DNA from: Candidatus Cloacimonadales bacterium
Lineage (GTDB): Bacteria > Cloacimonadota > Cloacimonadia > Cloacimonadales > DAONDQ01
NCBI GenBank assembly: GCA_963662275.1
Contig: OY759316.1
Location: forward strand, 1,984,001-2,048,000
Direction of reading: 5' to 3'
Length of the DNA: 64,000 nucleotides
Positions within the stretch are counted from its first letter, which is position 1. Each line of letters opens with the position of its first letter. The notes below the pieces were generated by a model, which worked only from the letters and a program-made list of their open reading frames with translations, was not told the origin of the DNA and ran no database searches. Below are positions 7,178-53,573 of this stretch, one piece after another. The position numbers and the translations under genes are program-made.

Positions 7178-7570
7178 TTCTGCAATGCCAATCTTCAATC
7201 TTCCATTTTCCATCTTAAATTCTGCAACCTCTGCCAAATCTTCAATTTTAAATCTTAAATAATTTCAAATTTATTTGAAATACTCCCTCCTATATGGCAG
7301 AAGGTGACAGCTAACAGGTAACAGCCGACAGGTTCAGAACACAGAAGAAAATGCCTCAGAAAGCAACTTCGAACTTCGCACTTCGTACTTCCAAATAAGT
7401 CTCATGGAAGATAAAAAATACATAAAAGAAATAAAAACTAAAGAAAATCTAAGGAAAATCTAAAAAAGTCTAGATGATCCCTAGATGATCCCTAGATGAA
7501 ACCCAGCTCATATTTTCAGTGGAAAATATGAGAATTAAAAAGTAAAAGTGAAAAATTAAAAATTACAGAT
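7178..7570. repeat. Cluster of short heptamer arrays (ATCTTCA-, ACAGNNN-, ACTTCGN-type) and 11-bp repeats (CTAGATGATCC)
   Basis: Visible 7-bp and 11-bp periodicity; TTCTGC boundaries. Confidence 0.65.
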
Positions 7571-7670
7571 GAAAGAGTCGAGATTCGCGGAAGTAAATCC
7601 GTCTGTTCTTCATCCCCCATTGAGAAGGGGGGTAGGGGGGTCTATTTTGTGAACTGTTTCCTGTTCGCTG

Positions 7671-8123
7671 TTAGCTTCTGCTCCGGTATTGCAAAATTCT
7701 TCTCATATCTTTTCGCACTAGCATCGGACAATTAGGAAGTTCATCATAGATCAAGTCCAGTCTATGTTGAGAAATTGGTTGTAGGAATTGGATTTTACCA
7801 TCTATTAATTTCTTCTGTAAATCGCTTTTAGTTACTTTATAAATCCGATATAATTGAATCATTGTGTCCTTAGAAAAACTACTTTCTGTATTAGCTTCAA
7901 TGAAGATACCAGGAAGATCATAGAATTTATATTCTCGTTCAATGTTAGAAGTAGTAAACAGGAATAACGATTCTTCATTGTCATCATTACAGATTACGAT
8001 TAGCCTTTTGTCTGTAGGTGTTCCACCATCTGTATATTCAACATCCAACATCCTAATAACAGTTCCAGCTATGAATAATTGAGTAAGCTGTTCTTCAATA
8101 GTTGGTGTGGAAGTATTCATCAA
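7671..8123 (-). CDS. Putative toxin, PemK/MazF-like fold
   Basis: ATGA overlap with the upstream Panacea gene; 'GTVI..DVEYTDG..PTDKRLIVI...LFLFTTS...F..DTMIQL.RI' pattern resembles PemK-like proteins. Confidence 0.55.
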   Translation of the reverse strand: MMNTSTPTIEEQLTQLFIAGTVIRMLDVEYTDGGTPTDKRLIVICNDDNEESLFLFTTSNIEREYKFYDLPGIFIEANTESSFSKDTMIQLYRIYKVTKSDLQKKLIDGKIQFLQPISQHRLDLIYDELPNCPMLVRKDMRRILQYRSRS

Positions 8124-8671: not shown

Positions 8672-9302
8672 AATACCTCCCTAACGTCCACCTATTAACA
8701 TAATTTAATATAATATAATTGTGCAATGAATATTCCAAAGTTAATTAGGTCAAGGCTTTTTGTTTTGTTCTGCTCTAGTCTCTATCATCTTCTGCAATGC
8801 CCTGTCAGCTATCAGCTATAAGCTTCTGCACTGCCAATTCTTAATTCTTCACTCTTAATTCTTAATTAAGCGAAGCGTTAAGCCTTCTGCCAGTCTGCCA
8901 ATTCATCGCATTTCACTTGTTTCAATCCTTGTTATGATGGATAGTGGTTATAGACCTGTCCGCTGTACCCTGTCCGCTGTCCGCTTCTGGTGAGTTTCAA
9001 TCCTTGTTATGATGGATAGTGGTTATAGACGGTAAGTATCTGCATCCATAAAATAGTCATATCCTTGTTTCAATCCTTGTTGCATATTCCGCTCAGAAAA
9101 GCCACCTTGTCCGATTAAGTTGAGCCAGTGCTCCACTATAATTGAGCCATACTATATTGTCTTTTTGAGCCACACTACGTATCTGATCGCCATATAACAT
9201 AATATCTGCAGTGTTTGGCAAGATTCTGTTCCGGCTGCTGCGGAGAGAGGACGTAGTCCGAGCGAAGCAGCAGCCGGAACGTTGCGCCTAATGGGCAATA
9301 GG

Positions 9303-10058
9303 CTATTTTCTATTGATTTGTTTTATTCCCTTGCGTTCTCTCATTGACATCTTCCCATCGATAAATATATGGTGAGAGTTATGAACAAGCCGGTCAAGGA
9401 TGGCATCAGCGAGAGTGGGTTGTCCAATCTTCTCGTGCCATCCTCCGGTTTTGAACTGAGAGCACAAGACCGTAGATGCTTTGGAATACCTCATCTCGAC
9501 TATTTCAAAGAGATCTTTAGCTTCCTGTTCGTTTATCCTGGTTAACAGCCATTCATCAAGTATCAGCAGTTTAGCATTGGCATATCTGTCTATGACTCTT
9601 TGATGCCCGCCTTCACAACGACTAACAGCGAGGTCATCCAACAGTTCAGGCAGGCGGACGTATTTTACAGTGAAGTATTTCTTGCAGGCAGCTATGCCAA
9701 ATGCGCAAGCCAGCCATGTTTTACCGCTTCCCGATGCTCCGGTGATGATGATATTCTCATTCTCTCCAATAAAAGAACATGACGCCAATTCAACGATTGC
9801 ACTACGATCAAGTTTCCTGTCTTCATGGTAGTCAATATCTGCTATACTCGCATTACTGAACTTGAAGCCGGCACCGTGAATCAGACGTTTAAGCCTATTA
9901 TTCTTGCGCTTATCCCATTCTATATCAACCAGCATGCCAAAGCGCTCGTCAAAGCTGTAGTTTTCCAGTGATTTATCGTTAACCTGATTTCGGTAGGCAT
10001 CTGCCATGCCATTTAACAGCATCTCTCGAAGTTTAATGATAGTAGTATTATTAGTCAT
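9303..10058 (-). CDS. istB: IS21 helper ATPase IstB
   Basis: Walker A GASGSGKT, LLILDEW, DAILDRLVH. Confidence 0.95.
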   Translation of the reverse strand: MTNNTTIIKLREMLLNGMADAYRNQVNDKSLENYSFDERFGMLVDIEWDKRKNNRLKRLIHGAGFKFSNASIADIDYHEDRKLDRSAIVELASCSFIGENENIIITGASGSGKTWLACAFGIAACKKYFTVKYVRLPELLDDLAVSRCEGGHQRVIDRYANAKLLILDEWLLTRINEQEAKDLFEIVEMRYSKASTVLCSQFKTGGWHEKIGQPTLADAILDRLVHNSHHIFIDGKMSMRERKGIKQINRK

Positions 10059-11603
10059 TTTCGTTTCTCCCGTAGTAACCTGATTCCCGGCTGATGGCAT
10101 ACTCTGAGCTTTGCACCGCTTCAGCATCATTATCGGTGCTTCTCTTCTGTTCATTTGAGTTTAGAATAGTCTTGATGATCCTGTAACTCGGATTTGGCGT
10201 GTAGCTTAATGCTCGTTGACAGGCACTTTCCAAATTTTGACAACCATACTTTTTTGAAGCGCTTAGCACAGCCATGCAAGTGCGATAACCTTGCTGTTCA
10301 ACCCGGCATGATCCCAGGATTGACTTGATTACCAACTCAGTGCTTGTTCCAATAGTACAAGCCCAGTCAACAAAACTTTCTGCATCCCATTTACGGTATT
10401 CCTGATGATCCCTGGGCATATGCTCGGCATTGGTCTGATATCGCTCAGAGTTTCCCTCCAAGCCCCTGTGGGAGGCTATTCTGACTGAATTGTAAAAGAC
10501 CTCCACCACCCTGGCGGTTAGGCGAATATCCACTTTGTGGTGGATATATTCATAAGGCACTGAATAATACTTCTTATCAACCATAATGTGATAGTTGTAA
10601 CCAACCGTTGCTGTAGCCCATGTAGCCAGTTCATAAGCCGCCTCCGGCAAGGGAAGCAGCTGCTCTCGTTCTTCTTGCCAAAATACGCTTTCACGGGAGC
10701 CATCTTTGACCTGGAAAGGCTGAAAGGCTTACTGTTAAATTCAGCCAACTTTTCCCTGATTGCCTTATTGAGTTCTCTAAGCGAGAAGAAACTCCTGTTG
10801 CGAAGAGCAGCCAGAATCCAGGTCGAGATAATACCTACTGTCCCTTCAGCACTTGCCTTATCCTTGGGATGCCTGACCCTGGCAGGGATGACCACTGTAT
10901 TGTAGTAATTAGCCAGTTCATTATATGTCCTGTTGATTACACTGCCTCCACTGGATACCCGCTCCACACCAGTCTTGAGGTTGTCAGGTACCAGTATTTT
11001 TGCCACTCCGCTCATATATTGAAAACAGTTTACATGAGCCTGAATCCAGTTACACAGACTCATATTGGGAAGTGCTTCAACATAAGCATAGCCACTATAG
11101 GGCAAAACAGCGACAAAGACTGGAACTTTAAGCTGTGCCCCGGTAAGATTGTTTGTCAAATACGCAGATTGACCTGCCCAATCAACCTCAAGCTTCTCAC
11201 CCGGCTTGTGATGAATGCGCATGGTTGCCTTGGTTTGATGAGCATATTCCGTGTAAAGCTCGCAGAATCGACTGTATTGATAGGGTATCGTCTGATTCTG
11301 ACGGCATAACTCCGAATATTCATGCCATAACAACGACAAGGTTACACCGCTTTTACCCAATTCCTTGTGAATATGCTCAAAATCAGGCATCCTGCGACAA
11401 CCTTCGATATTTACAATGGGAAATAGCATCTTCCCCAATTCCCTGTCACTAATTGTATCAGAAATTGGCCAGAAAACAGCTTGTTGGGCTGCTGCCCTCA
11501 GCACCTTGGATACGGTATTGCGGGAGCACGGCAGGCTTTGAGCAATATTCCTTTCACTAATTCCTTGCGCCTGTAAACGCAAGATTTCTCGATAATTGGT
11601 CAT
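10051..11603 (-). pseudogene. istA: IS21 transposase IstA, frameshifted by an 8-bp tandem duplication at 10714-10729
   Basis: ORFs 10518-11603 and 10051-10650 join into a full IstA (KPFQVKDGSRESVF) if one GAAAGGCT copy is removed; collinear with the intact IstA at 60798-62342. Confidence 0.9.
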
Positions 11604-13184
11604 TTTGTGACCTCCATTGTGTTATTTGCGCTCTTCAGCGCATTGCCACATGGTTAATCACACTCTGATTTATGCAAGGTGGCTCAAAGTAGAATATTCC
11701 CTGGCTCAATTATAGTGGAGCACTGGCTCAACTTGGGAATACTCATGGCTCAAATTCATAATATTATTCAACTTGTTATGATGGATAGTGGTTATAGACC
11801 GTGTCCTCTACTTTTAACAAGTTTAGGTACTCTACGTTTCAATCCTTGTTATGATGGATAGTGGTTATAGACGCTAAGTTATTGATAGTCAAGAAGTTAG
11901 AAATGAGTTTCAATCCTTGTTATGATGGATAGTGGTTATAGACAAATGTGACCACTGAATGCTTAGCAATGTAGAAAATGTTTCAATCCTTGTTATGATG
12001 GATAGTGGTTATAGACTTCACAGGAATTTCGTATGTATGAATATTTTTAACAAGTTTCAATCCTTGTTATGATGGATAGTGGTTATAGACCCTTATCCAT
12101 TTTCTTCATACTTGCCACGTTTTCTAAGTTTCAATCCTTGTTATGATGGATAGTGGTTATAGACATTCCTTGTCACTTCTATTAGTAGCTGGTTCAAATA
12201 TGTTTCAATCCTTGTTATGATGGATAGTGGTTATAGACTCCTTGCTTTGTTTGGCAGTTTCAAGAATTGACATGTTTCAATCCTTGTTATGATGGATAGT
12301 GGTTATAGACAATACATATTTTTACTTATGAAGATTTGATAGAATGTTTCAATCCTTGTTATGATGGATAGTGGTTATAGACGGAATTAACTTCTTTATT
12401 GGCAATTCTTGAAACTGTGTTTCAATCCTTGTTATGATGGATAGTGGTTATAGACAAATGTATTCAAAGTAACACTACCAGAACTAGTGAAGTTTCAATC
12501 CTTGTTATGATGGATAGTGGTTATAGACCTTAAAAGTAAGTTGTCAACTGAATTGCAAAATCTGGTTTCAATCCTTGTTATGATGGATAGTGGTTATAGA
12601 CGGAGATGTTATGGACACTGACACTGACATTACAATGTTTCAATCCTTGTTATGATGGATAGTGGTTATAGACTTCAGTTGTGGTTCTGGAGTTACCATA
12701 ATTGAAAGAAGTTTCAATCCTTGTTATGATGGATAGTGGTTATAGACGCTTCATTCTCTGAGGGAGTTTGATGCAGAATACCGGTTTCAATCCTTGTTAT
12801 GATGGATAGTGGTTATAGACGAAATCAGTTGCATGTTCGAGCAGGGTATTGACATGTTTCAATCCTTGTTATGATGGATAGTGGTTATAGACACGCTAAT
12901 ACATAGACGGCAAATGATCCTGTGATTAGTTTCAATCCTTGTTATGATGGATAGTGGTTATAGACTTCATTCCACACCAACTACAATCATCGTTACAAAC
13001 ATGTTTCAATCCTTGTTATGATGGATAGTGGTTATAGACTTACGATTGGAATGACATTGGCTATATAAGAGGTCAGTTTCAATCCTTGTTATGATGGATA
13101 GTGGTTATAGACAGGAATAAATCCGATAATGGTTATATATCAGGAAGGTTTCAATCCTTGTTATGATGGATAGTGGTTATAGAC

Positions 13185-13400
13185 TCGTCTGGATGCTCAA
13201 ACACAAGTAAGACAAGCAATTGTCTTCAAAACTCAGAAGAGGATAACACGAGTAAATAACCAAAAATAGCATAAAAACTCCTTATTTTCTTTGTATCGGA
13301 CATATTTTAACACTCTATATACCAGTCAAATAACAAATCATTTCAAATAAAGTCAATAAATATCTCTCGGAAAATAAACTCGAATTCCCTAAGATTGGAA
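13185..13400 (-). promoter_or_regulatory. CRISPR leader
   Basis: AT-rich non-coding stretch between the cas4 side and the first repeat, in the orientation implied by the ATTGAAAC repeat end. Confidence 0.65.
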
Positions 13401-13413
13401 TCTTAGACCACGA

Positions 13414-13530
13414 TATAGCAGGAACGGCGTCCTACTCTATGCAGATAGCAGGAACGGCGTCCTACTCTACGCAGATAGCAAGAACGGCGTCCTACTCTAC
13501 GCAGATAGCAAGAACGGCGTCTTGCTTTAC
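13414..13530 (-). repeat. 4 x 30-bp tandem GTAG-REP (GTAGAGTAGGACGCCGTTCCTGCTATCTGC)
   Basis: Tandem hairpin units immediately after the cas4 stop. Confidence 0.85.
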
Positions 13531-13531
13531 A

Positions 13532-14125
13532 TTACTTATCGCATAGATTGCGATAACAGCAATCCTGGCAGCGGACTTTACTTGTGGAAGCACCCGGATA
13601 CCAGGCATAGTTAATGATCCGAAAGACATCATCTACTATCTTCAACGTCTGTTTCTTAAGTTTATCTGTGATCTTTAATTCTTCCAGATGATTATTACTG
13701 CGAATATAGACGATATAGGCTTTTTCCACTTTTTTACTGAACATCTCTTCTGCAAGCAGGGCATACATAGTCTGTTGGATTCTGAATGTGGAGAATATCT
13801 TGTCTTTCCATTCTGCATATTTATAATCCAATATCGCAGCATTTCCATCAGCAAGGAAAAGCACTTCATCAGCTATACCAACCATTTTCAATTTCTCAGA
13901 ACTCATATAGACATTCAGTTCTTTTCCGATACTTCCAATTTTCTGACGAAGGTAATCTTTATTGGTCACCAGTTTTCTTTCATGCAGAGTCCGTCCTTTT
14001 TGAACAAGGGTTCTTCTTTGTTCATGTTGGTCAATTTTCAAGACGTTCAGGTAGTAGGTGAACCTCGGACAGAAAAGGTATTCTATCACATCAGAGGGGG
14101 TGATGAAGGTGAAAAGTTCAGACAT
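13532..14125 (-). CDS. cas4: CRISPR-associated exonuclease Cas4
   Basis: YLFCPR, G.ADEV...DYK, C-terminal C..C.Y...C Fe-S cysteines. Confidence 0.93.
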   Translation of the reverse strand: MSELFTFITPSDVIEYLFCPRFTYYLNVLKIDQHEQRRTLVQKGRTLHERKLVTNKDYLRQKIGSIGKELNVYMSSEKLKMVGIADEVLFLADGNAAILDYKYAEWKDKIFSTFRIQQTMYALLAEEMFSKKVEKAYIVYIRSNNHLEELKITDKLKKQTLKIVDDVFRIINYAWYPGASTSKVRCQDCCYRNLCDK

Positions 14126-14185
14126 TGTAAACCTTCATTCTGAGAGGATAAACACATGGGTTTATCCCTACATTGATAACATTAT

Positions 14186-14479
<294 letters not shown>

Positions 14480-14611
14480 CTATCCTTCTTTTAAATCTTC
14501 CATCTTATATTCTCATGGCTATCTCCGGTACATTTCGATACGATTTCTCCTTCGTCGAAATCACTCAATGAACCTTCTTCTCTGCAATTTTTCATTTTTA
14601 ATTCTTAATTT

Positions 14612-15595
14612 TTAATTCTCTAAGTCTTCCCTTTTTCCAATGAGCGTATTCGCGAAGGCATGAGCGCTAGCCTGGACGGATTGAATTCTTTTCATATTCT
14701 TATTACCCACACGAATGATCTCATCAAAGTACTCCATCAATGCTGGTACTAATAGTTTCTTGCCACTGTCATTCAGTGTAACTCCGTTATTGATTGTTTC
14801 GATGTTCTCATCTGTTACTTTATGACGTGAAAACAAATAGAATACAGGTTCTTCAATAATTATCCGAAATGGTTCGATGAAATCATAGACGAGAGAGACT
14901 TTGTTGTAGTTGTCCGTATGCAGGAATCCGATATAAGGGTCTAATCCTGCTATGATAAGAGCTTTCTCCACTTTCCCATACAAGATGCCATACCCGTAAT
15001 TCAGGAAAGCGTTAAACGCATCTTTTGCAGGGCGGGAACTCCTCCCCTCAAACTGATACTTATCAGGTATTAATTGAGATAAGCATTTGAAGTATGTCTT
15101 TCCGGCATTTCCTTCATATCCCATTAAGGTCGGTCCAATCAATTCAGGACATCCTTTCAATTCGCCAATCTTATTTCCGAAATCCCGGATACTGGTAATT
15201 TCTTTCTCCAAATCCACTTCACTTCGCTTGGAAACGAGTTTTGCTATTAAGGAAGCCTGATTCCTTACTTTTGAAGAAACCCATTTCTTAACAAACTCTG
15301 CCCCAGCATCAGTAACACTGATTTCCAGAAGCTTACGTCTAATGAAAGTTGTACTACCTAATTTAGGAAACCACACCCTGCCATAGGGATTACCAAATTC
15401 ATCAAGGAACAGAATATCAATGTTATGATCCATCGCCAGCTTGATCACATCCGAAGTAATCATGACGCCGTTGCAGATAATGATGGAACTGACCTTTTCC
15501 GGTGATATCTTCTTCTTATCATTCCCATTCTGTATTTCAAACATGTCTGCTGTCTTATGCAGCATTGTTCCGTAGGTGGTGATGTAGAGTTCCAT
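14612..15595 (-). CDS. cas1: CRISPR-associated endonuclease Cas1
   Basis: MGYEG.A...YF, FNAFLNYGYGILY, GLDPYIGFLH, SLVYDFIEPFR; TAATG overlap with the cas3 stop. Confidence 0.96.
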   Translation of the reverse strand: MELYITTYGTMLHKTADMFEIQNGNDKKKISPEKVSSIIICNGVMITSDVIKLAMDHNIDILFLDEFGNPYGRVWFPKLGSTTFIRRKLLEISVTDAGAEFVKKWVSSKVRNQASLIAKLVSKRSEVDLEKEITSIRDFGNKIGELKGCPELIGPTLMGYEGNAGKTYFKCLSQLIPDKYQFEGRSSRPAKDAFNAFLNYGYGILYGKVEKALIIAGLDPYIGFLHTDNYNKVSLVYDFIEPFRIIIEEPVFYLFSRHKVTDENIETINNGVTLNDSGKKLLVPALMEYFDEIIRVGNKNMKRIQSVQASAHAFANTLIGKREDLEN

Positions 15596-17916
15596 TAAAA
15601 ACAGCAATCCTCATATTTGGGTTCAGTATAATAACCGGTATCTTTATCATATTGTGGTGAGAGAGTATATTGATCTATAATCTGTAAATCCGATTCTGAA
15701 TCTTGCTTACCTGATTTTGTATGAACAAGAACAATATACTGGCTCATTTCTGACCAAATCAGTTTCAGTTTTCTCTTCTTTTCAAACCTATCGAGAATAT
15801 CATTTCTCTTCAGATCATAATATCTTTGAAGAATACTGGATGCTTCATCATCAAATTCAATAAACACTGGCACCTTGGGCAATTCTTTAATCAGTTCAAA
15901 CGCATATTGGTTTTTACCAGTGCCTAAATGAAAAGCCTGATGATATTGCAGTTTCTCGATAAACTTAATTAATTCCTTTGAATCCTGATTATTCTTTCTT
16001 TCCATCAAAGTAGAATAGTATTGATGTGATAGCTCATAAAAAGAGGATTCCCGAATTACTTCTTCAATGGGAACAATCTTCTTTGTACAATCAATTAAGA
16101 CTGTATCATAGATATAACTCCAATAGTATTTGTTCTTATCATCGTGCAATTCCCACAATTCAACGATACCATTGCTCGACATTTCGTTTCTTTTACATCT
16201 GCCGGCAGCTTGAAAGATCGCATCCAAAGGAGCCATATCACGATAGACGATATCTAAATCAATATCAACACCAGCTTCCACAAGCTGAGTTGAAACAACG
16301 ATCTTACCTTTGTTTGATTCTTTTATTTCCCTGATTCTTTCCAGTCTGTGTTTTGGAATGATATTCGTCGATAAATAGACCAAATCAGCTTGAGGAATTT
16401 GTTCATTAATTGCATGATAGACATGTAGTGATGATTTAATTGTATTTAGGATGATAAGCCTGCTTTTATCAGGTTCAGCTTTAATCTGATCAACCAGGAA
16501 TTTAATGAAACTATCTATGCTTGATGGATTCTTCCTAATTAAGGAAATCCGATTCATCTCATGGAAATACTCTTTTTTATGAGTTGCCAACTCTGTAATT
16601 TCATTCTTTTCCTCTGAAAAAATCAACGGCATGGTTGCAGTACAGAGAATGAAATGAATATCAAGCATCTCAGCCATTTTAGTGAATTGTGTATTTATCA
16701 AAGCCCAATATTTGAAATCAATTGTCTGAACTTCATCCAGGATTATTATGGAATGAGCCAAAGTAAACATTCGTTTCAGCATGGAGTTCTGATTGGTAAA
16801 GATACAATATAGCAACTGGTAAAAAGTAGTAATGATCATTTCACTTTGCCAGGTTTCAATAGGAAATAGCATATCGTTACCTGCATCATCTTCATCAATC
16901 ATATCTCTCAAGCTATTATGATGATGTATGAGGAGATTCCCAAGGTTCTGATCAATATTATTTTCTTCCAGTATCTTCTTCATAACATCAGCATTCTGAT
17001 CAATAATGGAAGTAAATGGCAAAGCATAGATAATTCTCTTCTTTTGTTTATACCTGTCACGTAAAATCATAGCCGCTTGCAAAGCTGTAAGGGTCTTACC
17101 GCTACCAGTTGGTAAATTGATGGAGAGAATCCTTGAACCGCTCTTAGTCACAGAGTTGATAACATCCAAATATACTCTTTCACGGAGTTCATTGATTCTT
17201 GCAGATTGAGTCAGACTCTTTTTGAATTCCGGTATGAATTCTTTGTTCCATTGAATCTCCACATGATCATCATCCGTTCTCATATAAATAGCAGAATTCT
17301 TATCTGCATAAATCAGGATTGAGAAAAGATAATTTAATACTTGAAAGTCATTCGGTTGAATCATCTGCTTCCATTTAATCAAAGAAATTCCTGAAAAACT
17401 GCTATCCTTGAATTGAAGCTTCTCTTCCAGATTAGCGGCTGTAAAGTATTCAGGTGAAATCAATAATCTGAAAATAGGTTCAAGTGAAATGTAATCAATG
17501 TTTTGGTTAATTTCACTTAGCTGATGCATTTCTAAATATCGAACACCAATTTCATTGAAATCAATTAAATCCTTATGATGGGATTTGACGATGATATATC
17601 CATAATATGCTTGAATATCACTTACTTTCAAAATATCCCGTAGATAATGGAAAACCAATAAGGCACTCAGTTCAGCATGGTTTTTTAATTCTGTATTATG
17701 CTTATCCGGCTCACGTATGTATCTTTGAAAGAAGATAGAGGCTTTTCCGAAATCATGCAGTAACAGTGCTGCTTCCAAGATTGGACGATATTCAGGGAAT
17801 AATCCATTCTGATCAAATATGTTCAATCCAGTTTGTTGAACTGTTATTAAGTGATCACAAAGTAACACTTCAGGATGAGAAAGCAACTTATAACCAGCAG
17901 ATTTTATCTGTTCCAT
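15595..17916 (-). CDS. cas3: CRISPR-associated helicase/nuclease Cas3
   Basis: HD domain (HDFGK, HAELSA), PTGSGKT, DEVQ, STQLVEAGVDID, QAAGRC; start position approximate. Confidence 0.95.
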   Translation of the reverse strand: MEQIKSAGYKLLSHPEVLLCDHLITVQQTGLNIFDQNGLFPEYRPILEAALLLHDFGKASIFFQRYIREPDKHNTELKNHAELSALLVFHYLRDILKVSDIQAYYGYIIVKSHHKDLIDFNEIGVRYLEMHQLSEINQNIDYISLEPIFRLLISPEYFTAANLEEKLQFKDSSFSGISLIKWKQMIQPNDFQVLNYLFSILIYADKNSAIYMRTDDDHVEIQWNKEFIPEFKKSLTQSARINELRERVYLDVINSVTKSGSRILSINLPTGSGKTLTALQAAMILRDRYKQKKRIIYALPFTSIIDQNADVMKKILEENNIDQNLGNLLIHHHNSLRDMIDEDDAGNDMLFPIETWQSEMIITTFYQLLYCIFTNQNSMLKRMFTLAHSIIILDEVQTIDFKYWALINTQFTKMAEMLDIHFILCTATMPLIFSEEKNEITELATHKKEYFHEMNRISLIRKNPSSIDSFIKFLVDQIKAEPDKSRLIILNTIKSSLHVYHAINEQIPQADLVYLSTNIIPKHRLERIREIKESNKGKIVVSTQLVEAGVDIDLDIVYRDMAPLDAIFQAAGRCKRNEMSSNGIVELWELHDDKNKYYWSYIYDTVLIDCTKKIVPIEEVIRESSFYELSHQYYSTLMERKNNQDSKELIKFIEKLQYHQAFHLGTGKNQYAFELIKELPKVPVFIEFDDEASSILQRYYDLKRNDILDRFEKKRKLKLIWSEMSQYIVLVHTKSGKQDSESDLQIIDQYTLSPQYDKDTGYYTEPKYEDCCF

Positions 17917-18598
17917 CTTCTGCAATCCAATATTCTTTTGGAATTACTTTCATCTTCTTTCCTGAGCTTTCAAAGATGTATTGCTCATATTGGAAGGTTT
18001 CCCTGTCATTTTTCATTGCTCTGGGTAGTAATGTCCTGAATATTTGAATATTACTCCCAAAATCAATATCAATCACGTCATTATCTTTGATTGCTGTTTT
18101 GATAAAATGCCATTCCTTATTCTCTGAAACCGATGAATATTCAATTTCTTTTATGTAGGAAAAATTAGCAAGACAGTTACTGATTCCGAGGCATATCGTA
18201 TATTGGCTTTTATGTTCTTTCAAATGAGATAAAAGCTTCTGATATATGCCATCATCATTATGTGAAAAATAAATTCGATATTTTGGACATTTCAGATATT
18301 CCACATGGGTAGGTTTATGCTCTTTAAAACGTGAGAACTGAGACATACCTCCACTTGTTTTTAGATTATTGACGGGTATCTTCACATTCCTGCTTTGCTG
18401 TAATATCTGAATGCCAATATATGAAATTTCGGGAGAGAATTTCTCAGGGTTCTCTGCTTTATCAATGCCGATGATACCTCCTATGATTCCGGCAATAACT
18501 GTCCTGGGAGGTATCTGATAGGTAAGTGGTGACATATTGGTATAGAATTTCCTAAACTGGGCATAATCTGCCCATATATCAAATTCGAGTACCTTCAT
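17888..18598 (-). CDS. cas5: Type I-B Cas5 (Cas5b/Cas5h)
   Basis: FDIWADYAQFRK.YT..SPLTY.IPPRT.IAGIIG. Confidence 0.92.
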   Translation of the reverse strand: MKVLEFDIWADYAQFRKFYTNMSPLTYQIPPRTVIAGIIGGIIGIDKAENPEKFSPEISYIGIQILQQSRNVKIPVNNLKTSGGMSQFSRFKEHKPTHVEYLKCPKYRIYFSHNDDGIYQKLLSHLKEHKSQYTICLGISNCLANFSYIKEIEYSSVSENKEWHFIKTAIKDNDVIDIDFGSNIQIFRTLLPRAMKNDRETFQYEQYIFESSGKKMKVIPKEYWIAEDGTDKICWL

Positions 18599-18619
18599 CT
18601 TAGCCTCAATGTTTAATAA

Positions 18620-19549
18620 TTATAGTATCCATTCCTTATTCAGATTTTTTACAGAATCCAAACCAATGTATTTTAATCTGGAATCAGCAATGATACGAAC
18701 ATCTTGTATATGATCCTGGTTTTTGATAAGCACTTTTCCTAATTCAGATAAATTAAGTATTACTTCTCCGATATCTCTCAATTGCTCATCAGAGATTGTT
18801 TTATCCAAAGACACATATTTATCCAATTCACCAATAAAGAATGATGGATCTTTGTAGGTAACTACCAAAAGCAATCTTGGCTGATGTTCCATTTTAGAAC
18901 GTGTGATCAAATTCTTGGTTCCATACCACATACTCTTGTACAGCAACTTTACATCAGCTTCAGTCAATTTAGTTTTCTCTGCAGCATTCTCATTAACAAC
19001 ACCATAAAAAGCAATGAGAGAATAAGGAAGGATATGCTCTTCACGGAATGTCTTATTTTCTTTTCCAGCCTGTGATGCAAAAGCTCCAGTACCCTTAATA
19101 AACATTGGCTTTACTTTATGAAGTGAATGACCCATTTTGAATTGCACTGGACCAGTAAATGTTAGAGAGTCCTTTTCTATTGGGAGTACACCTCCAAATA
19201 AACGTATATCTATACAGGAATTTAAAACATTATCTGCATCATTACTAAAGCAACCGGTTCTTTGCTTTCCATCCATAATACCAAGTTTCCCATTTTCTTT
19301 TGCCTTCTTAGCAGGATCAGGCAAAGCTTCCATTTCTCGGACAAAAATGTCTTTCTCTTTTGTATTGTGTCCTTCAAAATTGAACAAATAATCACGTATA
19401 GTTCTTTTCAGACGAACATCGGTTACAATATTAATACCCGTTTCGTTATCAATTCGTGGCATATTTCCATCAGCAGGATCACCATTGGGATTGGCATTAG
19501 TGACATCATACAGAAAGAGGATTTCACTGCGATTGAGAGACATCTTCAT
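18620..19549 (-). CDS. cas7: Type I-B Cas7 (Csh2)
   Basis: NRSEILFLYDV.NANPNGDP..GNMPRID, VTDVRLKRTIRDY, IDIRLFG, TGPVQF. Confidence 0.94.
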   Translation of the reverse strand: MKMSLNRSEILFLYDVTNANPNGDPADGNMPRIDNETGINIVTDVRLKRTIRDYLFNFEGHNTKEKDIFVREMEALPDPAKKAKENGKLGIMDGKQRTGCFSNDADNVLNSCIDIRLFGGVLPIEKDSLTFTGPVQFKMGHSLHKVKPMFIKGTGAFASQAGKENKTFREEHILPYSLIAFYGVVNENAAEKTKLTEADVKLLYKSMWYGTKNLITRSKMEHQPRLLLVVTYKDPSFFIGELDKYVSLDKTISDEQLRDIGEVILNLSELGKVLIKNQDHIQDVRIIADSRLKYIGLDSVKNLNKEWIL

Positions 19550-20142
19550 TCTCCTTTTTTTCTTTGAATTGTTTATTAAGTGTCATACCGAGAGTAAAAT
19601 TAAAGCTAATATCATCATTAGGCATCTTACTGAAATCAGACTCAATAAACAATGACGCGATATTGCTTTCCAAATCTCGATAGTAATTCTTATCATACTG
19701 ATTCAATTTTTCTACTATTTCAGTATAAAGCCTTTGTACCATTTGCGGATTTAACTTCATATTGTTCAGCTTTGAACGAAATGGAGTAGAATCTGTTTGT
19801 TGCTTTGTGATATCCATCAGGTGTTGGCATAACATAATAAGCATTTCCCATCATAGACATGATTGGATATGCTGTTGAACAAGCTCAAGTAGCAGGGTGA
19901 TTTTGAATATGTATTTGGAAATTGCTTTTTGAAGATTTCTTGGGTTGAATTGGATTTTTACAATTTTAGCAGAGTCTTTTCCAATGGAAGAGATGATTTT
20001 CTTTTCAGAAGTTATCAAATCACTTTGAGATCAGACTTTTTGTGTATGGGCTGATATTGTTTTCAAGTATTTTAGCAAATTGCCTGTAATATTTCGGTTG
20101 TTTCTATAATTTAGGCAAGACAATCCCGTCGGTAAAATTAAC

Positions 20143-21285
20143 TTACAGTTTACCGCCATCAAAGCAATTTGCCAAAAACAACAGCGACCAAGGCGGTGAT
20201 CTTGGTTTTCCGGTAATTGAAGCATGCTGTGTCATCTTTGATTTGCAATTAGGGCAGAGGTCTTTTTCAAATTTGGGAATTACAAAAGTTTTAGCTGTCT
20301 GATTCTTGTCATTAGAATCGGACTTTGCTGGGAAAAAGCTGTTGACCATCTCCCAGACAGATTTTGCCGCCGGACTGAGAAATCCGTAGTATCTGATTTT
20401 CTGAAATCCCTGCGGCAGAACATGCATCAGGAACTTATTGATAAACTCCACGGAGTCGACGCTTTTAAAGGCGAATTTAGCTGAACCTGCCGGCTTGTAT
20501 TTAAAGGTTACCAGCCCGTCCTTTTCCCAAAGGATGCGATTGTTGGTGATGGCGGTCCGATACACATAATTGGCCAAATAAGTCAGAGCCTCCCGACCTT
20601 TTCCGACGGGTCGGGAGTCTGTGACAAACTCTTTTTGCTGCCAGACTAGCGGGGATATCCGACCAAACAGATGCTGATTTTCCAGTCGAAGCAAATCACG
20701 GAATTTTGCCCGGTAAATCACCGAAAGAGCTTTGACCGGAATCAGGAACTTATTGCCTGCTTTTTGCCATTCCTTTCGTTCTTTATTCCAAGCTCCGCCG
20801 GGGACTATATAATGAATATGAGGATGATATTCAAGCTGCCTTGTCCAGGTATGAAGTACCCCGGTAAAGCCTGAAACGCCACCGGCATATTTGGGATCTG
20901 AAAGCAATGTCTTTAAGGCTTCAGATGATGCTTTGAACTGAAGATCATAAAGCAGTTTCTGATTTGACAGGCATGTTTTGTGCAGTTCCCGGGGTATGGT
21001 GAAAGTTACCATGAAGTACTTAACCGGCAGCAGTTTGGCAAGCTGCTTTTCCAGCCATTTCGCTGAATCATTACGGCCACACTTCGGGCAGTGACGGTTT
21101 TTGCAGGAATGATAGGAATAATGCAGTTCCGCACATTCCTGGCATAAATAGACTTCTCCGCCCAGTTCAGGTGTCCGGCAAAGGAGAATATCTCTGATCG
21201 CTCTTAAATGGCTTTCCGGTGACTGGTTTCCATATTTTTCCAGATACTCGGACAGGTTGTTTTTGAGAATCCTGCTAAAATCCAT
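20143..21285 (-). CDS. IS91-family (Y2 HUH) transposase with N-terminal Zn finger
   Basis: CQEC...SCKNRHCPKC, FMVTFTIP, LHTW...HPHIH, YLANY, HVLPQGFQKIRYYG. Confidence 0.93.
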   Translation of the reverse strand: MDFSRILKNNLSEYLEKYGNQSPESHLRAIRDILLCRTPELGGEVYLCQECAELHYSYHSCKNRHCPKCGRNDSAKWLEKQLAKLLPVKYFMVTFTIPRELHKTCLSNQKLLYDLQFKASSEALKTLLSDPKYAGGVSGFTGVLHTWTRQLEYHPHIHYIVPGGAWNKERKEWQKAGNKFLIPVKALSVIYRAKFRDLLRLENQHLFGRISPLVWQQKEFVTDSRPVGKGREALTYLANYVYRTAITNNRILWEKDGLVTFKYKPAGSAKFAFKSVDSVEFINKFLMHVLPQGFQKIRYYGFLSPAAKSVWEMVNSFFPAKSDSNDKNQTAKTFVIPKFEKDLCPNCKSKMTQHASITGKPRSPPWSLLFLANCFDGGKL

Positions 21286-22158
21286 TTACATCTTATTCAT
21301 CAGTTCATTGATGATTTTACATGACTGCTCTCGGGAAACGTTAGTCAAATGCACGTATACCATGGTCGCTCTAAGACTTTCGTGCCCGAGCAAGTCTTTG
21401 ATGATGATGATACTGACACCTGCTTCCAATAAATGTGTGGCATAAGAATGTCTGAGTGTATGACAGGTTACATGCTTAGGGATGCGTGTCTCCTTTAAGG
21501 CTGACTTCAGAGCTGACCGAAGAGTTTGGACAGAAATCTGGTTCGAGGTTGTCATTCTGTTAATATCAGCCTGTCTGGTGCTTCTGCTCGGGAATAAAAG
21601 CTGTCTGTTCTGATGGGTTTTCCAATATTCCCGGAGTTCCTGATACAATTTTTCAGGCAGAGGTATTGACCTGTCTTTGTTGCCTTTGGATTGCCTTACC
21701 GTGATGGTCATCAATTCCCGGTTGATATCGGCTATTTTAATCTTGACTGCTTCCGAAATCCTTAATCCGCATTGATAGGTAAGAGTCAGTAAGAGTCGAT
21801 AATCATAAGTATGAATGCGGGAGATAAGCATTCTAACTTCGTCTGTGGTCAGAATCACAGGAAGTTTGTGCTCAATCTTTGCCTTAAAAAAGGTAAAATC
21901 CTCTTGCCTGAAACCAACAACATGGATGAAAAAAAATCTGATGCCATAATAGGCTGATTTTAAACTCTGAGGACTATAATTCTTGACGTTATGCAGGTAG
22001 ACAAAATATGTTCTTACCTGTTCAATAGATAGTGTGCCGGGGTCTTGACCATAATATGATGCTAAAGAAGTGACTTGTCTGATGTAATTGTATTTTGTCT
22101 CTCGGGACACGCCTCGAAGATCAAGGCACTCTAAAAAGCGAACTTCGTATGATTCCAT
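21286..22158 (-). CDS. Tyrosine recombinase (integron-integrase-like N-terminal SAM domain)
   Basis: KLPVIL, YQCGLRISE, KG.KDR, HTLRHSYATHLLE, LLGH, TMVY catalytic R-K-H-R-H-Y set. Confidence 0.93.
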   Translation of the reverse strand: MESYEVRFLECLDLRGVSRETKYNYIRQVTSLASYYGQDPGTLSIEQVRTYFVYLHNVKNYSPQSLKSAYYGIRFFFIHVVGFRQEDFTFFKAKIEHKLPVILTTDEVRMLISRIHTYDYRLLLTLTYQCGLRISEAVKIKIADINRELMTITVRQSKGNKDRSIPLPEKLYQELREYWKTHQNRQLLFPSRSTRQADINRMTTSNQISVQTLRSALKSALKETRIPKHVTCHTLRHSYATHLLEAGVSIIIIKDLLGHESLRATMVYVHLTNVSREQSCKIINELMNKM

Positions 22159-23829
22159 ACTTACCTCCAGTTAATTTTGGGGGTAAGTATGCTTTTAGTG
22201 AGGGTTCAGTATATCAATAGTTTAAATGCATGAAACACGAGTTTACTGCGAACGGTACTGCTGCTTGCAGCTTCGTTCAACACTCCTGTTAAGAATACAG
22301 ATTTCTTAGCATTTGAATTAAAGTATGACGCATGTTCCTGGAAGAAGTCATTATATTTAGTATCCAAACTAACCTCCTGATCTTTGTTTGTTGGGAAATC
22401 TATACATTTTAATTCTTGCATAAAGAGAATGATTTGAAATGCTTTTAGCACAAGATGGTCGATGAATTCTCCTTTAGCAAATCTGGAAACGATCAATGAC
22501 ATGATTCTATGTGACAGATAATCATAATCATATTGCTTTTGCTGAAACGTACTTTGAACTATCTTAAGAAAAGCCTCAGTGTAATCACCTTCAATTCTGC
22601 TTTTAATCGGAAAGAAATCTTTTACAATTGAGTAGGTAAATTCAAGAGTTCCAGCTACTCCTTTTTCGTTAATGCCTTTAATATTCTTGAAAACAGAATG
22701 TTTTTCAGCTCGATCTTTTGCATTAAAAAGTGCTTTGAAGTGAGTTGGGAAAAGACCTTCAATCGATTCAAGAATAGAGAACTTAGCATTCTCTGCATCG
22801 AAAAAGAATATTGAATAATTTGCTCTGTTATTCAAATCTGACAAAAGATCAAAAACTTCATCTTCAATAGATGATACATTTACAATGTGTTTACGAGTCA
22901 TGTTCATCTGTCCAATTGATTTTCCGTTATCAGTGAAAAGCTCCAGAATTTGATTGTTAGCTTCCGATACTTTGAGAAACTCTGGTATAAGGTAATAATC
23001 AAGACCACAGAATTTATAATGAAGATAGCGATCATTGAACTGCTTTGCTCTTTCCAGCTTTAATGCACAATTCTCACAGACAGGATAGTTCTTCCAAGCT
23101 TCTTTGCGATTAAAACCGGATGCTAATGGAGCTAGTTCTGTTTTAGCTGTATAAAAATTATATGTGCTTACAAACCCCCAAACTTGAACAGAATCTCTAT
23201 GGCACAGACTACAGGTTTTATTATCTCCGATATAGACTTTATCTCCCAATGTGTAATAATCTTTGTTTCTATCTGTTATTGCTTGTTTTCGGATTTTATC
23301 GAAATCACCTGATTCTCCTATTGATTCATTGTTGATACGTATTGTAAGAATAAACAGGTCTTTCGTTTTTGAAAGGTGTTCATCAACCGATTTAGCTATA
23401 AAGCCAATATCACTCTGGATATAGTTGAAATAGGCTCTAATATCGGATCAATGCTGAGACAGTTTTTCCATATACGAAACCATTTACCTATTGCTTTAGT
23501 AGTTATCAACTGATCATCAGAATCATCAAGAAGGAAGTCTCTATCTGATACAAAGATAGTTGGGAAATCAGATACGCTGTTTGCTTGTGATCTTTTAAAA
23601 AACCACTTAGTTTGATTATCTTCTTTTTTATAATCATATAGATCAGAACCAGTAAATTGTATATTATCTTTCTCTATTTGGAAATTTAAGACAATCACCT
23701 TTTCTTTTCGATCTTCTAATTCCAATCCATAAGAATCATATTCTACTGAATCATTTGGTATAAATGGCTCAAGATTGATTAATTTCTGTATCATTCTTTC
23801 TCCTTCATCACAACAACTCTTAACAAGCA

Positions 23830-23955
23830 GAACAGACAGTAAGCTCGGCATCTTACTCCACTCAGACAGCAGGAACGGCGTCCTGCTCTACGACACAAAA
23901 CAGTAAGATCGGCATCTTACTCCACGCAGACAGCAGGAACGGAGTCCTGCTCTAC
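23830..23955 (-). repeat. REP cluster (alternating GTAGAGCAGGAC... and GTGGAGTAAGATGCCGA... hairpins) between cas6 and cas8b
   Basis: Four hairpin units; the first GTAG overlaps the cas6 TAG stop. Confidence 0.8.
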
Positions 23956-24614
23956 GACTCCTTCATCACAACACCGAACCCTCTAGCGCTTTGTTTTCCC
24001 AGACCAACAAAGTCAGGCAGGTCGAAGTTCATGACAAATTTCCCTTTAAAACCGAGCATTTTCTGATTTTTGAAATTCATCTGCGTTTCTTCAAAGAAGC
24101 CATCCACCTTTATTTGCTCAATATCAGGTATCTGATAGACAAAGCCTTTAGAGATGGTTTTCAGATTCTCTCTCAGTATGTGACGCAGGAACTTCTGACG
24201 TTCAATTGTATCTAATGATATATAGGTTTTGTGATTTTCTTCCTTCAGAGCCATCCAGGGGGACAGGAAAGAATACTTCTGATATGTTGATGTAGCACCA
24301 AAGTCATATTCGCCTAAAAATACTTCCCTATCATGGGCAGGATATATCGTCTGGTTGATTCTTATTTCATTTGTGCGAAAGAAGATGTCCTTGAGTATGT
24401 GAATGCCTTCATTCATCGCCATGAGAGCTGGATGGTTATCAATCATGCGATATTGTATGACCGGATATTTATAGGAAAACGTGTTATCGGGTAAGTGGTT
24501 ATGGAGTTGAGTATGCTCTGGAAATTGATGTGAGAACCAGCCGCGCAGCTTCGGTATATCCTGTGGCTGCAATTGAATATCCGTAAATTTCATGGTTAAG
24601 ATCGTTACTTTCAT
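23952..24614 (-). CDS. cas6: CRISPR-associated endoribonuclease Cas6 (Cas6b type)
   Basis: LHNH....F.Y.YP.IQY, F.SPWMAL, C-terminal GLGKQSARGFG G-rich loop. Confidence 0.9.
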   Translation of the reverse strand: MKVTILTMKFTDIQLQPQDIPKLRGWFSHQFPEHTQLHNHLPDNTFSYKYPVIQYRMIDNHPALMAMNEGIHILKDIFFRTNEIRINQTIYPAHDREVFLGEYDFGATSTYQKYSFLSPWMALKEENHKTYISLDTIERQKFLRHILRENLKTISKGFVYQIPDIEQIKVDGFFEETQMNFKNQKMLGFKGKFVMNFDLPDFVGLGKQSARGFGVVMKES

Positions 24615-24904: not shown

Positions 24905-25105
24905 TACCGCGTAAATGCGGAGCTACTATAAGAATGATCGGCATCCTACTCTACAACCGCGTAAATGCGGAGCTACTCATAAGAATGAACGTCGTCCTAC
25001 TCTTCAACCGAGTAAATGCGGAGCTACTCATAAGAATGAACGTCGTCCAATTCTTCAACCGCGTAAATGCGGAGCTACTATAAGAATGAACGACGTCCTA
25101 CTCAA
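24905..25105 (-). repeat. 4 x ~51-bp tandem units containing the REP GTAGCTCCGCATTTACGCGGT
   Basis: Tandem near-identical units directly after the stop of the 25112-30244 gene; same REP at 53390-53470. Confidence 0.85.
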
Positions 25106-34880: not shown

Positions 34881-35100
34881 AGGTGTTAGGTGTTAGGTGT
34901 TAGGTGTTAGGTGTTAGGTGTTAGGTGTTAGGTGTTAGGTGTTAGTACACCTGTGCCCTGTACCCTGTACCCTGTACCCTGTACCCTGTACCCTGTACCC
35001 TGTACCCTGTACCCTGTACCCTGTACCCTGTACCCTGTACCCTGTACCCTGTACCCTGTACCCTGTACCCTGTACCCTGTACCCTGTACCCTGTACCCTG
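34881..35100. repeat. Bipartite heptamer array: (AGGTGTT)x9, then (CCCTGTA)x20
   Basis: Directly visible; fills the gap between the HD gene stop and the prfB RBS. Confidence 0.97.
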
Positions 35101-44123: not shown

Positions 44124-44547
44124 GATTCCGATCTTACTGAATCATAGCTCCGACTTCAAGCGGTTAAGTCTTGTGGAGTAAGATTCCGATCTTACTGAAT
44201 CGTAGCACCGACTTCAGGCGGTTAAATCTTGTGGAGTAAGTTTCCGATCTTACTGAATCGTAGCGCCGACTTCAGGCGGTTATGTCTTGTGGAGTAAGAT
44301 TCCGATCTTACTGAATCGTAGCACCGACTTCAGGCGGTTATGTCTTGTGGAGTAAGATTCCGATCTTACTGAATCGTAGCACCGACTTCAGGCGGTTATG
44401 TCTTGTGGAGTAAGATTCCGATCTTACTGAATCGTAGCACCGACTTCAGGCGGTTATGTCTTGTGGAGTAAGATTCCGATCTTACTGAATCGTAGCACCG
44501 ACTTCAGGCGGTTATGTCTTGTGGAGTAAGATTCCGATCATGCTGTC
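44117..44547 (+). repeat. 7 x 58-bp tandem BIME-like units plus a partial eighth (GTGGAGTAAGATTCCGATCTTACT hairpin + GTAGCACCGACTTCAGGCGGT)
   Basis: GGAGTAAG recurs at 44117, 44175, 44233, 44291, 44349, 44407, 44465, 44523. Confidence 0.95.
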
Positions 44548-46949: not shown

Positions 46950-47097
46950 AGCATGACGCCGATCATGCTGTCTGTTGCGGAGTAAGATTCCGATCATGCT
47001 GCCTGTTGTGGAGTAAGATTCCGATCTTACTGTTTGTTGTGGAGTAAGATTCCGATCTTACTGTCTGTCGTGGAGTAAGAATCCGATCTTACTGTCT
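46946..47097 (+). repeat. 5 x 31-bp tandem REP units (GTGGAGTAAGATTCCGATCTTACTGTCTGTT)
   Basis: Same hairpin as 44117-44547; the first GTAG overlaps the glycosyltransferase TAG stop. Confidence 0.88.
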
Positions 47098-52972: not shown

Positions 52973-53389
52973 AATATTTGTTTGAACTTGCTATATATCA
53001 AGTATAAACTTTGGGGCATGATATCGGTTGTTTGGCGGAGATCTGGATATTGAATTGTAGATTATTTTTTGGTATTGATTTTCGAAATAGTTTAGGGTTT
53101 AAGTCCGAAGGACGTTATTCTGTTAGCCAAGGAAGTCCCTACTGGGAAAAGTAGGGGTTCGCGTCAGCAGACACATTCTGGTTAAGAGTCCTGTAGGACG
53201 GAACAAGACTGTAGCGCTTACTTTAGGAGGTTTTTTCTTTGTAGTCACTGCTTCAGCTTGTGTGTAATGATCTTTAGGTCATTGTCTGCCGTCCTGTGAG
53301 CTACCGGAACGCCTGACCCCGTCAGGTGGCAAAACGCACCCCGTGCGTTTCTATCTCCAAGCTGAAGTATGATCGGTATCCTGTTCTTC

Positions 53390-53470
53390 AACCGCGTAAA
53401 TGCGGAGCCACAAAGACCAACCGCGTCAAGGCGGAGCTACGAAGACCAACCGCATAAATGCGGAGCTACG
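53390..53470 (-). repeat. Three copies of the GTAGCTCCGCATTTACGCGGT REP upstream of rpsT
   Basis: Same unit as 24905-25105. Confidence 0.75.
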
Positions 53471-53573
53471 AAAATAGTATGATCGGCATCCTTCTCGAAA
53501 AAAGAAATTGACATAAAAACGCTCTAACTTTCTTTTACACATAATATTATAAGTTAAATGGAGGAACCACCGA

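Follow-up and report, generated by a model that had tools for sequence, protein, structure and literature searches.

The window analysed here, a 64,000-nt stretch of a Candidatus Cloacimonadales genome that forms a single contig (C1; 4.38 Mb, 39% GC), carries a CRISPR array whose oldest spacer, at 8956-8993, consists largely of tandem heptamers like those of a repeat family in the same genome. The question raised by this locus is where such a spacer came from. A preliminary description of the window proposed that the spacer copies a heptamer-array element, and that it was either captured from the host, self-targeting then favouring loss of Cascade, or taken from arrays that travel on a phage or other mobile DNA or as free DNA intermediates.

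Array 1, its cas operon and the oldest spacer

Array 1 has a 37-nt repeat (GTTTCAATCC...TATAGAC on the plus strand), of which 21 copies are intact (8919-13184) and one is split by an IS21-family element (table 1). This 2.7-kb element, with CTTGTT duplicated at both of its junctions, sits between the leader-distal unit and the leader. We place the leader at 13185-13531 on three grounds. The minus-strand cas operon, from cas6 to cas4, leads into the array; the reverse complement of the repeat, as read from the sequence, has ATTGAAAC as its end, which we take to be the usual crRNA handle; and every one of the 21 intact repeats is matched by Rfam CRISPR-DR7 on the minus strand. The spacer at 8956-8993 is therefore the leader-distal, oldest unit, in agreement with the preliminary description. 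The repeat of array 1 was not found in the 40 relatives searched or in JGI metagenome contigs. A search by eye for an extra degenerate repeat to the left of 8919 found none there.

Directly to the right of the array lies a type I-B operon on the minus strand, which includes a cas6-like gene. The earlier reading of cas8b as broken holds: an IS91-family transposase (20143-21285) and a tyrosine recombinase (21286-22158) lie between its pieces, the IS91 in cas8b being one among several IS matches within the CRISPR-Cas locus.

Table 1. Positions of array 1, the cas genes and the heptamer elements in the window
Feature	Position	Strand	Content or evidence
Host heptamer element	7298..7332	-	CTGTCGG CTGTTAC CTGTTAG CTGTCAC CTTCTGCC
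Inverted partner element	7654..7685	+	CTGTTTC CTGTTCG CTGTTAG CTTCTGC
Trailer heptamer element	8802..8830	+	CTGTCAG CTATCAG CTATAAG CTTCTGC, then (AATTCTT)n array
Terminal leader-distal CRISPR repeat, perfect copy	8919..8955	-	repeat match; Rfam CRISPR-DR7
Oldest spacer, 38 nt	8956..8993	-	four CTGTNNN heptamers, CTTCTG, GTGA
CRISPR repeat, perfect 37-mer	8994..9030	-	
Second-oldest spacer, 37 nt	9031..9067	-	phage contig G041 match 35/37
Split CRISPR repeat, first 15 nt	9068..9082	-	remainder at 11775-11799
IS21-family element within repeat	9083..11774	-	istA 10518-11603, istB 9303-10154
Leader-proximal array part	11800..13184	-	19 spacers (34-37 nt), 19 perfect repeats
Leader region, cas4 to first repeat	13185..13531	-	3.6 copies of 30-nt tandem repeat, 13415-13521
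Adaptation genes cas4 (13532-14125), cas2 (14186-14476), cas1 (14612-15607)	13532..15607	-	full length against profiles
cas3 (15595-17925), cas5b (17888-18598), cas7/Csh2 (18620-19549)	15595..19549	-	
cas8b fragments	19524..23249	-	C-terminal piece 19524-19844, middle piece 22206-23249
22-copy GTACCCT array (CTGTACC rotated)	34945..35100	+	TRF; beside nine AGGTGTT copies, 34881-34945

By position the oldest unit is a spacer: it lies between full repeats (8919-8955 and 8994-9030, both perfect 37-mers) in an array beside full-length cas1, cas2 and cas4, and it is the longest of the array by 1 nt (38 vs. 34-37 nt in the other 20 spacers). It reads CTGTCCG CTGTACC CTGTCCG CTGTCCG CTTCTG GTGA, the content of one heptamer-element end plus 4 nt of flank. 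Where the heptamer family is defined by at least three tandem CTGTNNN units directly followed by CTTCTG, the spacer has four. The flanks that also mark the family, a C after CTTCTG and pyrimidine-rich TGAAC before the first unit, are not those of the spacer. The base after CTTCTG is G in the spacer and, among 50 host elements, C in 43, T in 6, A in one and G in none, and any flank upstream of the first heptamer is cut away by the CRISPR repeat, which ends AGAC.

Self-similarity at period 7 is 0.65 for this spacer and at most 0.41 for the other 20 of array 1, and reaches at most 0.48 among 44 spacers listed from the other arrays of the genome. In related arrays of the order, where a look for heptamer-type spacers had been suggested, the maximum among 363 spacers of eight arrays (nine loci were examined, one being masked and yielding no spacers) is 0.59, in an A-rich spacer. 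Architecture, pattern counts and period-7 scores together confirm the proposal that the spacer copies an end of the genome's heptamer-repeat element, and the resemblance is statistically secure rather than due to chance. The details given for this proposal stand as well, since the spacer has the architecture of the minus strand of 7298-7332 (the locus at C1:1991298) and has its CTGTACC unit in common with the array at 34956-35100, where the GTACCCT unit reported by TRF is CTGTACC rotated.

Three features of the locus are recorded here in their own right. The operon order is cas3-cas1-cas2-cas4, with cas4 last and adjoining the leader (13532-17925); the usual type I-B order is cas4-cas1-cas2, and the order here is thus unusual. 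The same IS21-family element lies after repeat base 15 in two unrelated CRISPR arrays (window 9083-11774 and C1:3415173-3419730), two further left ends of the ten abut or sit inside heptamer arrays (C1:2846504 and 2509959), and four of the ten copies are in repeat arrays of this genome. Arrays of tandem units some 30-60 nt long are present at 13415-13521, 23832-23958, 24906-25103, 44108-44539, 46959-47097 and 53389-53472, one in the CRISPR leader and one between cas6 and cas8b; their units look hairpin-like by eye, and they may be members of the REP/RAYT family.

Heptamer elements in the host and in other genomes

The pattern (CT[GA]TNNN)n-CTTCTG, with n of at least 2, occurs at 64 loci of the host genome including the spacer itself (63 others), and the stricter form of three CTGTNNN units plus CTTCTG at 38 host loci, vs. 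none for a reversed control pattern. The consensus of 50 host elements is pyrimidine-rich and then TGAAC before the first unit, and A-rich beyond the C that follows CTTCTG. Most elements are intergenic, 40 of 51 having no overlap with ORFs of at least 100 aa, though 87% of the genome lies within such ORFs. A gene on the opposite strand has its stop codon within ~30 nt beyond CTTCTG in about 14 of the 51.

Period-7 arrays flank all four intact PF05635 ("23S rRNA IVS protein") genes of the host, as inverted arms at three of the four. One such cassette (C1:1265377-1265691) has arms of CTGTACC, CTGTACG and CTGTCCG, that is, the unit types of the spacer, and another is bounded by GCAGAAG...CTTCTGC; in a further genome (G001) a PF05635 gene lies 63 nt from a (CTGTTAC)3-CTTCTG element. 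The heptamer elements are arms of PF05635 cassettes, a membership (inverted period-7 arrays bracketing a gene) that applies to the element family and not to the spacer at 8956-8993. Between the inverted elements to the left of array 1, the ~320 nt of 7333-7653 hold short tandem repeats and a G-rich hairpin; this stretch appears to be a gene-less cassette, since its interior has no PF05635 gene and only a 15-codon ORF.

Beyond the host, the strict element was found at two loci in the second genome of the genus (a 240-contig MAG), and a search of 39 other genomes of the order did not find it. Three soil-metagenome runs from three studies in the SRA contain stretches identical over 31-32 nt to 8956-8987 (four heptamers and CTTCT), with differing GC-rich flanks and no CRISPR repeat. 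As these flanks are unrelated and the CRISPR repeat is missing, we regard the soil contigs as carrying relatives of the element and not the target of the spacer. A Longimicrobium MAG has one near copy between two tRNA genes (L069:301-334). With the soil copies it indicates that the element architecture is common to several phyla. High-GC viral contigs in IMG/VR bear similar heptamer units.

Heptamer cassettes are also found in other CRISPR arrays of the genome. Two further arrays (C1:3091150-3092290 and 3105250-3108080, leaders on the high-coordinate side) are built of a 35-nt repeat, GTCTCAATTCTT[CTCGAG or ACCGGT]AAGTCATG..., and their trailers contain, in all, six composite cassettes of heptamers, each >100 nt, that end CTTCTGC-A(A/T)C or CTTCTGC-AGATC. 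All six are fused directly to repeats without their first 6 nt, and at three places a cassette occupies all of the space from one truncated repeat to the next; in these arrays and in array 1 alike, the CTTCTG end is toward the leader-proximal repeat. Because of this fusion to truncated repeats, heptamer cassettes can enter arrays without adaptation. The six are largely duplicates of one another and therefore count as about one independent event. A fourth array (C1:3414904-3420760) has no heptamer units. As side observations, the 35-nt repeat forms a hairpin in two compensatory variants, and the trailers of these arrays are mosaics of CTATTCC-type and CTGTNNN-type cassettes in which a 126-nt unit occurs three times in tandem.

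Protospacer searches and the viral contig G041

The preliminary description reported no exact protospacer in the window, which is correct and extends to the rest of the 4.38-Mb host genome, where the exact 38-mer is likewise absent. The best host matches agree at 32 of 38 positions, at six places, all mismatched at the PAM-proximal GGTGA end. Exact 25-nt stretches of the spacer occur at five host places, and >200 places agree at 26-32 of 38 positions. The PAM-proximal 10 nt, CTTCTGGTGA, are found at three other host places, none of them preceded by heptamers. A host match with an intact seed, as self-targeting would need, is thus absent, and none of the other 20 spacers of array 1 matches the host chromosome, which gives no hint of primed self-acquisition. 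The suggestion that self-targeting favoured the loss of Cascade loses its footing with these results: the best host match is 32/38, no host heptamer element carries CTTCTGGTGA, and the idea is unsupported because no protospacer was found. Nothing connects the loss of Cascade to this spacer.

Wider searches were similarly negative. No match with up to 3 mismatches was found in 203 genomes of the order; IMG/VR has neither the exact 38-mer nor a degenerate four-unit pattern ending CTTCTGGTGA, JGI metagenome contigs have no degenerate three-unit pattern ending CTTCTGGTGA, and GTDB representative genome contigs have no match to a 32-mer of the spacer, these collection scans being exact or pattern-based, so that protospacer variants could escape them. 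BLAST against PLSDB plasmids gave only partial matches in unrelated taxa (at most 30 nt with 93% identity and 34 nt with 83%), the best of them being runs of one heptamer unit, and BLAST against cultured phages gave matches solely outside 8956-8993. Arrays of CTGT[AC]C[CG] lie at 16 viral loci of 32-71% GC, none of which is a protospacer. No unrelated phage coding sequence matching the spacer came up in these searches, and near matches do exist among the host arrays.

The heptamer pattern was also scanned for across the viral contigs of IMG/VR (2.9 million by the description of the database), giving six loci on four contigs. Host-type flanks occur on one of these only, the 35-kb contig IMGVR_UViG_3300014204_000458 (hereafter G041; about 38% GC), which is the only low-GC viral contig with host-flanked elements and carries three, each (CTGTTCC)4-CTTCTGC. 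A looser pattern added only high-GC contigs. When all 21 spacers of array 1 were compared with G041 by BLAST, one gave a strong match: the second-oldest (9031-9067), at 35 of 37 positions, and a 24-nt piece of it matched exactly one IMG/VR contig, again G041. The heptamer scan and the search with the second-oldest spacer thus converge independently on the same contig. G041 has no protospacer for the oldest spacer itself.

Its genes (portal protein, head protease, tail fibre, two integrases, primase, methyltransferases) show that G041 is a real temperate phage. Many host-type period-7 arrays (CTGTTCC, CTATTCC, AATTCTT and others) fill its intergenic gaps, and dozens of 35-60-nt stretches are ~81-97% identical to host intergenic DNA. 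Sites with the architecture of the spacer number three in 35 kb of G041 (86/Mb) vs. 35 in the 4.38 Mb of the host (8/Mb, spacer included), a density about 11 times higher, the figure being from one phage. The density argument rests on that one phage because G041 has no relatives in IMG/VR, where a 645-aa protein that the contig end truncates and the portal protein, used as queries, both matched G041 only; prophage homologues in the order are only 24-49% identical. A prophage-like region of the host near 1.53 Mb encodes a methyltransferase 60% identical to one of G041 and gives a distant portal-like match, and a (CTGTTCC)6-CTTCTGC element is close to it.

The protospacer of the second-oldest spacer is 170 nt from the end of the contig, and the adjoining phage DNA is therefore unseen. 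Its flank in crRNA sense ends TTT, which falls within the range of TTN-type PAMs that Table 1 of PMC8482600 gives for type I-B; the PAM of array 1 is not fixed by this, as one protospacer is known and it has two mismatches. Relative to the array, the three G041 elements and this protospacer are all on one strand, for which the chance expectation is 1 in 2. The option that the arrays travel on a phage or other mobile element thus gained real support from G041, its three elements and the match of the adjacent spacer.

We also observed that in gaps between co-directional genes of G041 (e.g. 9400-9810, 11440-11760 and 16520-16585 of L017/L018) the period-7 arrays run opposite to the gene strand, and that a GCAGA-repeat and AAGTAACCTAAAGGATACTACTACC motif recurs behind them, immediately ahead of the next start codon.

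Origin of the spacer and comparison with known systems

The explanation that we prefer, with about even confidence, is an ordinary acquisition by Cas1-Cas2-Cas4, with a phage or other mobile DNA bearing a heptamer cassette as the donor of the spacer. The adaptation proteins of the locus would have integrated the 38-nt unit as a genuine spacer when the array was young. The source DNA would have been the outermost part of an intergenic cassette with heptamer arms (four CTGTNNN units and the CTTCTG boundary, plus 4 nt of flank), and the source replicon most likely foreign, a temperate phage of the lineage or other mobile DNA with such cassettes and not the chromosome. A phage source is favoured because the adjacent spacer targets a phage with such elements and a host target is absent today; the prophage-like host region near 1.53 Mb, close to a heptamer element, was taken as a second phage in its favour, and the patchy spread of the element across phyla, with different flanks, was counted toward horizontal movement. 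Both of the oldest spacers may come from one kind of phage, possibly via primed adaptation, which the single-strand layout on G041 fits at the level of chance already given. The spacer is presumably inert today, since cas8b is broken and the IS21 element separates the unit from the leader. Against a phage source, the G041 elements use CTGTTCC, whereas CTGTCCG and CTGTACC are typical of host chromosomal arrays, and the heptamer cassettes at the trailers of two other host arrays would fit a non-adaptive process.

Those unit types bring in the host itself, from one of whose heptamer elements the spacer could have been taken, the original target having since been altered by slippage or mutation or been lost. 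Such capture is a fair rival, if on balance an unlikely one. The host has 63 other family elements and 34 other sites of the exact architecture, with heptamer elements no more than 1.7 kb from array 1. Its arrays contain CTGTCCG and CTGTACC units, the arms of the PF05635 cassette at C1:1265377-1265691 are built of the units of the spacer, and the exact 25-nt stretches at five places and the six 32/38 matches are its own; repeat arrays are moreover plausible break or stalling sites that feed spacer adaptation. This abundance has to be set against the absence of anything better than 32/38, every near match failing at PAM-proximal GGTGA, and of a G after CTTCTG in any of the 50 host elements. The other 20 spacers have no chromosomal match, the one known phage is per base about 11 times richer in such sites, and a perfect self spacer would be toxic under an intact Cascade, yet 20 later spacers were added. 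It is less probable still that adaptation played no part and that cassettes colonize array trailers by insertion or microhomology recombination, the 38-nt unit being a minimal product inside a duplicated repeat. The six trailer cassettes fused to truncated repeats in the two arrays with GTCTCAATTCTT... repeats, three of which fill gaps between repeats, speak for such a process, as do the common orientation of the CTTCTG end and a trailer of array 1 (8780-8918) that is full of heptamer elements. The inserts there, however, are >100 nt long and their repeats truncated, while the unit here is 38 nt (other spacers 34-37) between two perfect repeats, and the extra perfect repeat beyond it has no simple source but Cas1-Cas2 integration. 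In addition, the six instances, being largely mutual duplicates, amount to about one event, and the fourth array is without heptamer units.

A role as regulatory guide is very improbable. Degenerate mini-CRISPRs, CreA/CreR, act as regulators of type I systems and exist in type I-B; a crRNA of this kind would, by partial complementarity to many of the heptamer elements, direct Cascade to bind but not cut dozens of intergenic sites, and the >200 host places matched at 26-32 of 38 positions could serve it. The distal repeat-spacer-repeat unit resembles these mini-CRISPRs in having a guide that partly matches host DNA. It differs in that its repeats are perfect and not degenerate, that the host has no seed target flanked by a PAM, and that it is a normal array end severed by an IS; CTTCTGGTGA is present at only three other host places, none after heptamers, cas8b is broken, and IS21 stands between the unit and the leader. 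The CreA-like reading was rejected on the perfect repeats and on the lack of a seed-matching host site in heptamer context.

Under the preferred explanation, acquisition from phage or other mobile DNA, the spacer compares most directly with ordinary phage-derived type I-B spacers, whose adaptation is Cas4-assisted and PAM-selected. Like them it is a spacer-sized unit between perfect repeats, in an array beside a cas6-cas8b-cas7-cas5-cas3 plus cas1-cas2-cas4 operon, with a neighbouring spacer that matches a temperate phage. Unlike them, it derives from a tandem-repeat element and not from a unique stretch of phage DNA, the searches gave neither a protospacer nor a PAM for it, the gene order is cas3-cas1-cas2-cas4, and the locus is in decay, its cas8b interrupted by IS91 and its array by IS21. 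Taken alone, the oldest spacer is a single oddity of this array, ordinary in kind and not a new kind of system.

Heptanucleotide repeats (STRR) were reportedly described in cyanobacteria by Mazel and co-workers in 1990. The host's tandem 7-nt units agree with STRR and PF05635 cassettes in being intergenic (40/51) and in flanking PF05635 genes (4/4), and differ in that an element end is stored in a CRISPR array and elements are carried on a phage contig. In the literature listings we found no published report of a CRISPR spacer from STRR-like or other intergenic repeats, or of such elements on a phage. We tentatively consider, as a doubtful wider reading, that heptamer cassettes of the PF05635 type are phage-borne mobile DNA sampled by CRISPR adaptation, the spacer being a fossil of this, and that they also invade array trailers. 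If so, phages would act as carriers that spread an old and unexplained class of repeat between phyla, and CRISPR arrays would preserve a dated record of heptamer cassettes. The presence of STRR-like cassettes on phage DNA makes their horizontal movement testable. The main worth of the results is that the spacer match, together with the genus-typical repeats, links the uncultured temperate phage G041 to a Cloacimonadota host. They also advise caution in spacer-to-host matching, where a repeat-family spacer yields many misleading partial "self" matches.

An inactivated effector gene is a pattern described for self-targeting arrays, and the spacer at 8956-8993 is alike in resembling host DNA and in coinciding with such a gene. 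It is unlike them in having no full or seed-intact host match, its resemblance being to a repeat family and not to a single locus. Self-targeting spacers are the subject of a review (PMC6990116). Two spacers elsewhere in the genome are candidates for true self-targeting, directed at a prophage: in the fourth array, with its 36-nt repeat (C1:3419822-3419917), two 30-nt spacers match the chromosome over 27 and 25 contiguous bases, at 1555055-1555081 and 1558212-1558236, in or near the prophage-like region at ~1.53-1.56 Mb.
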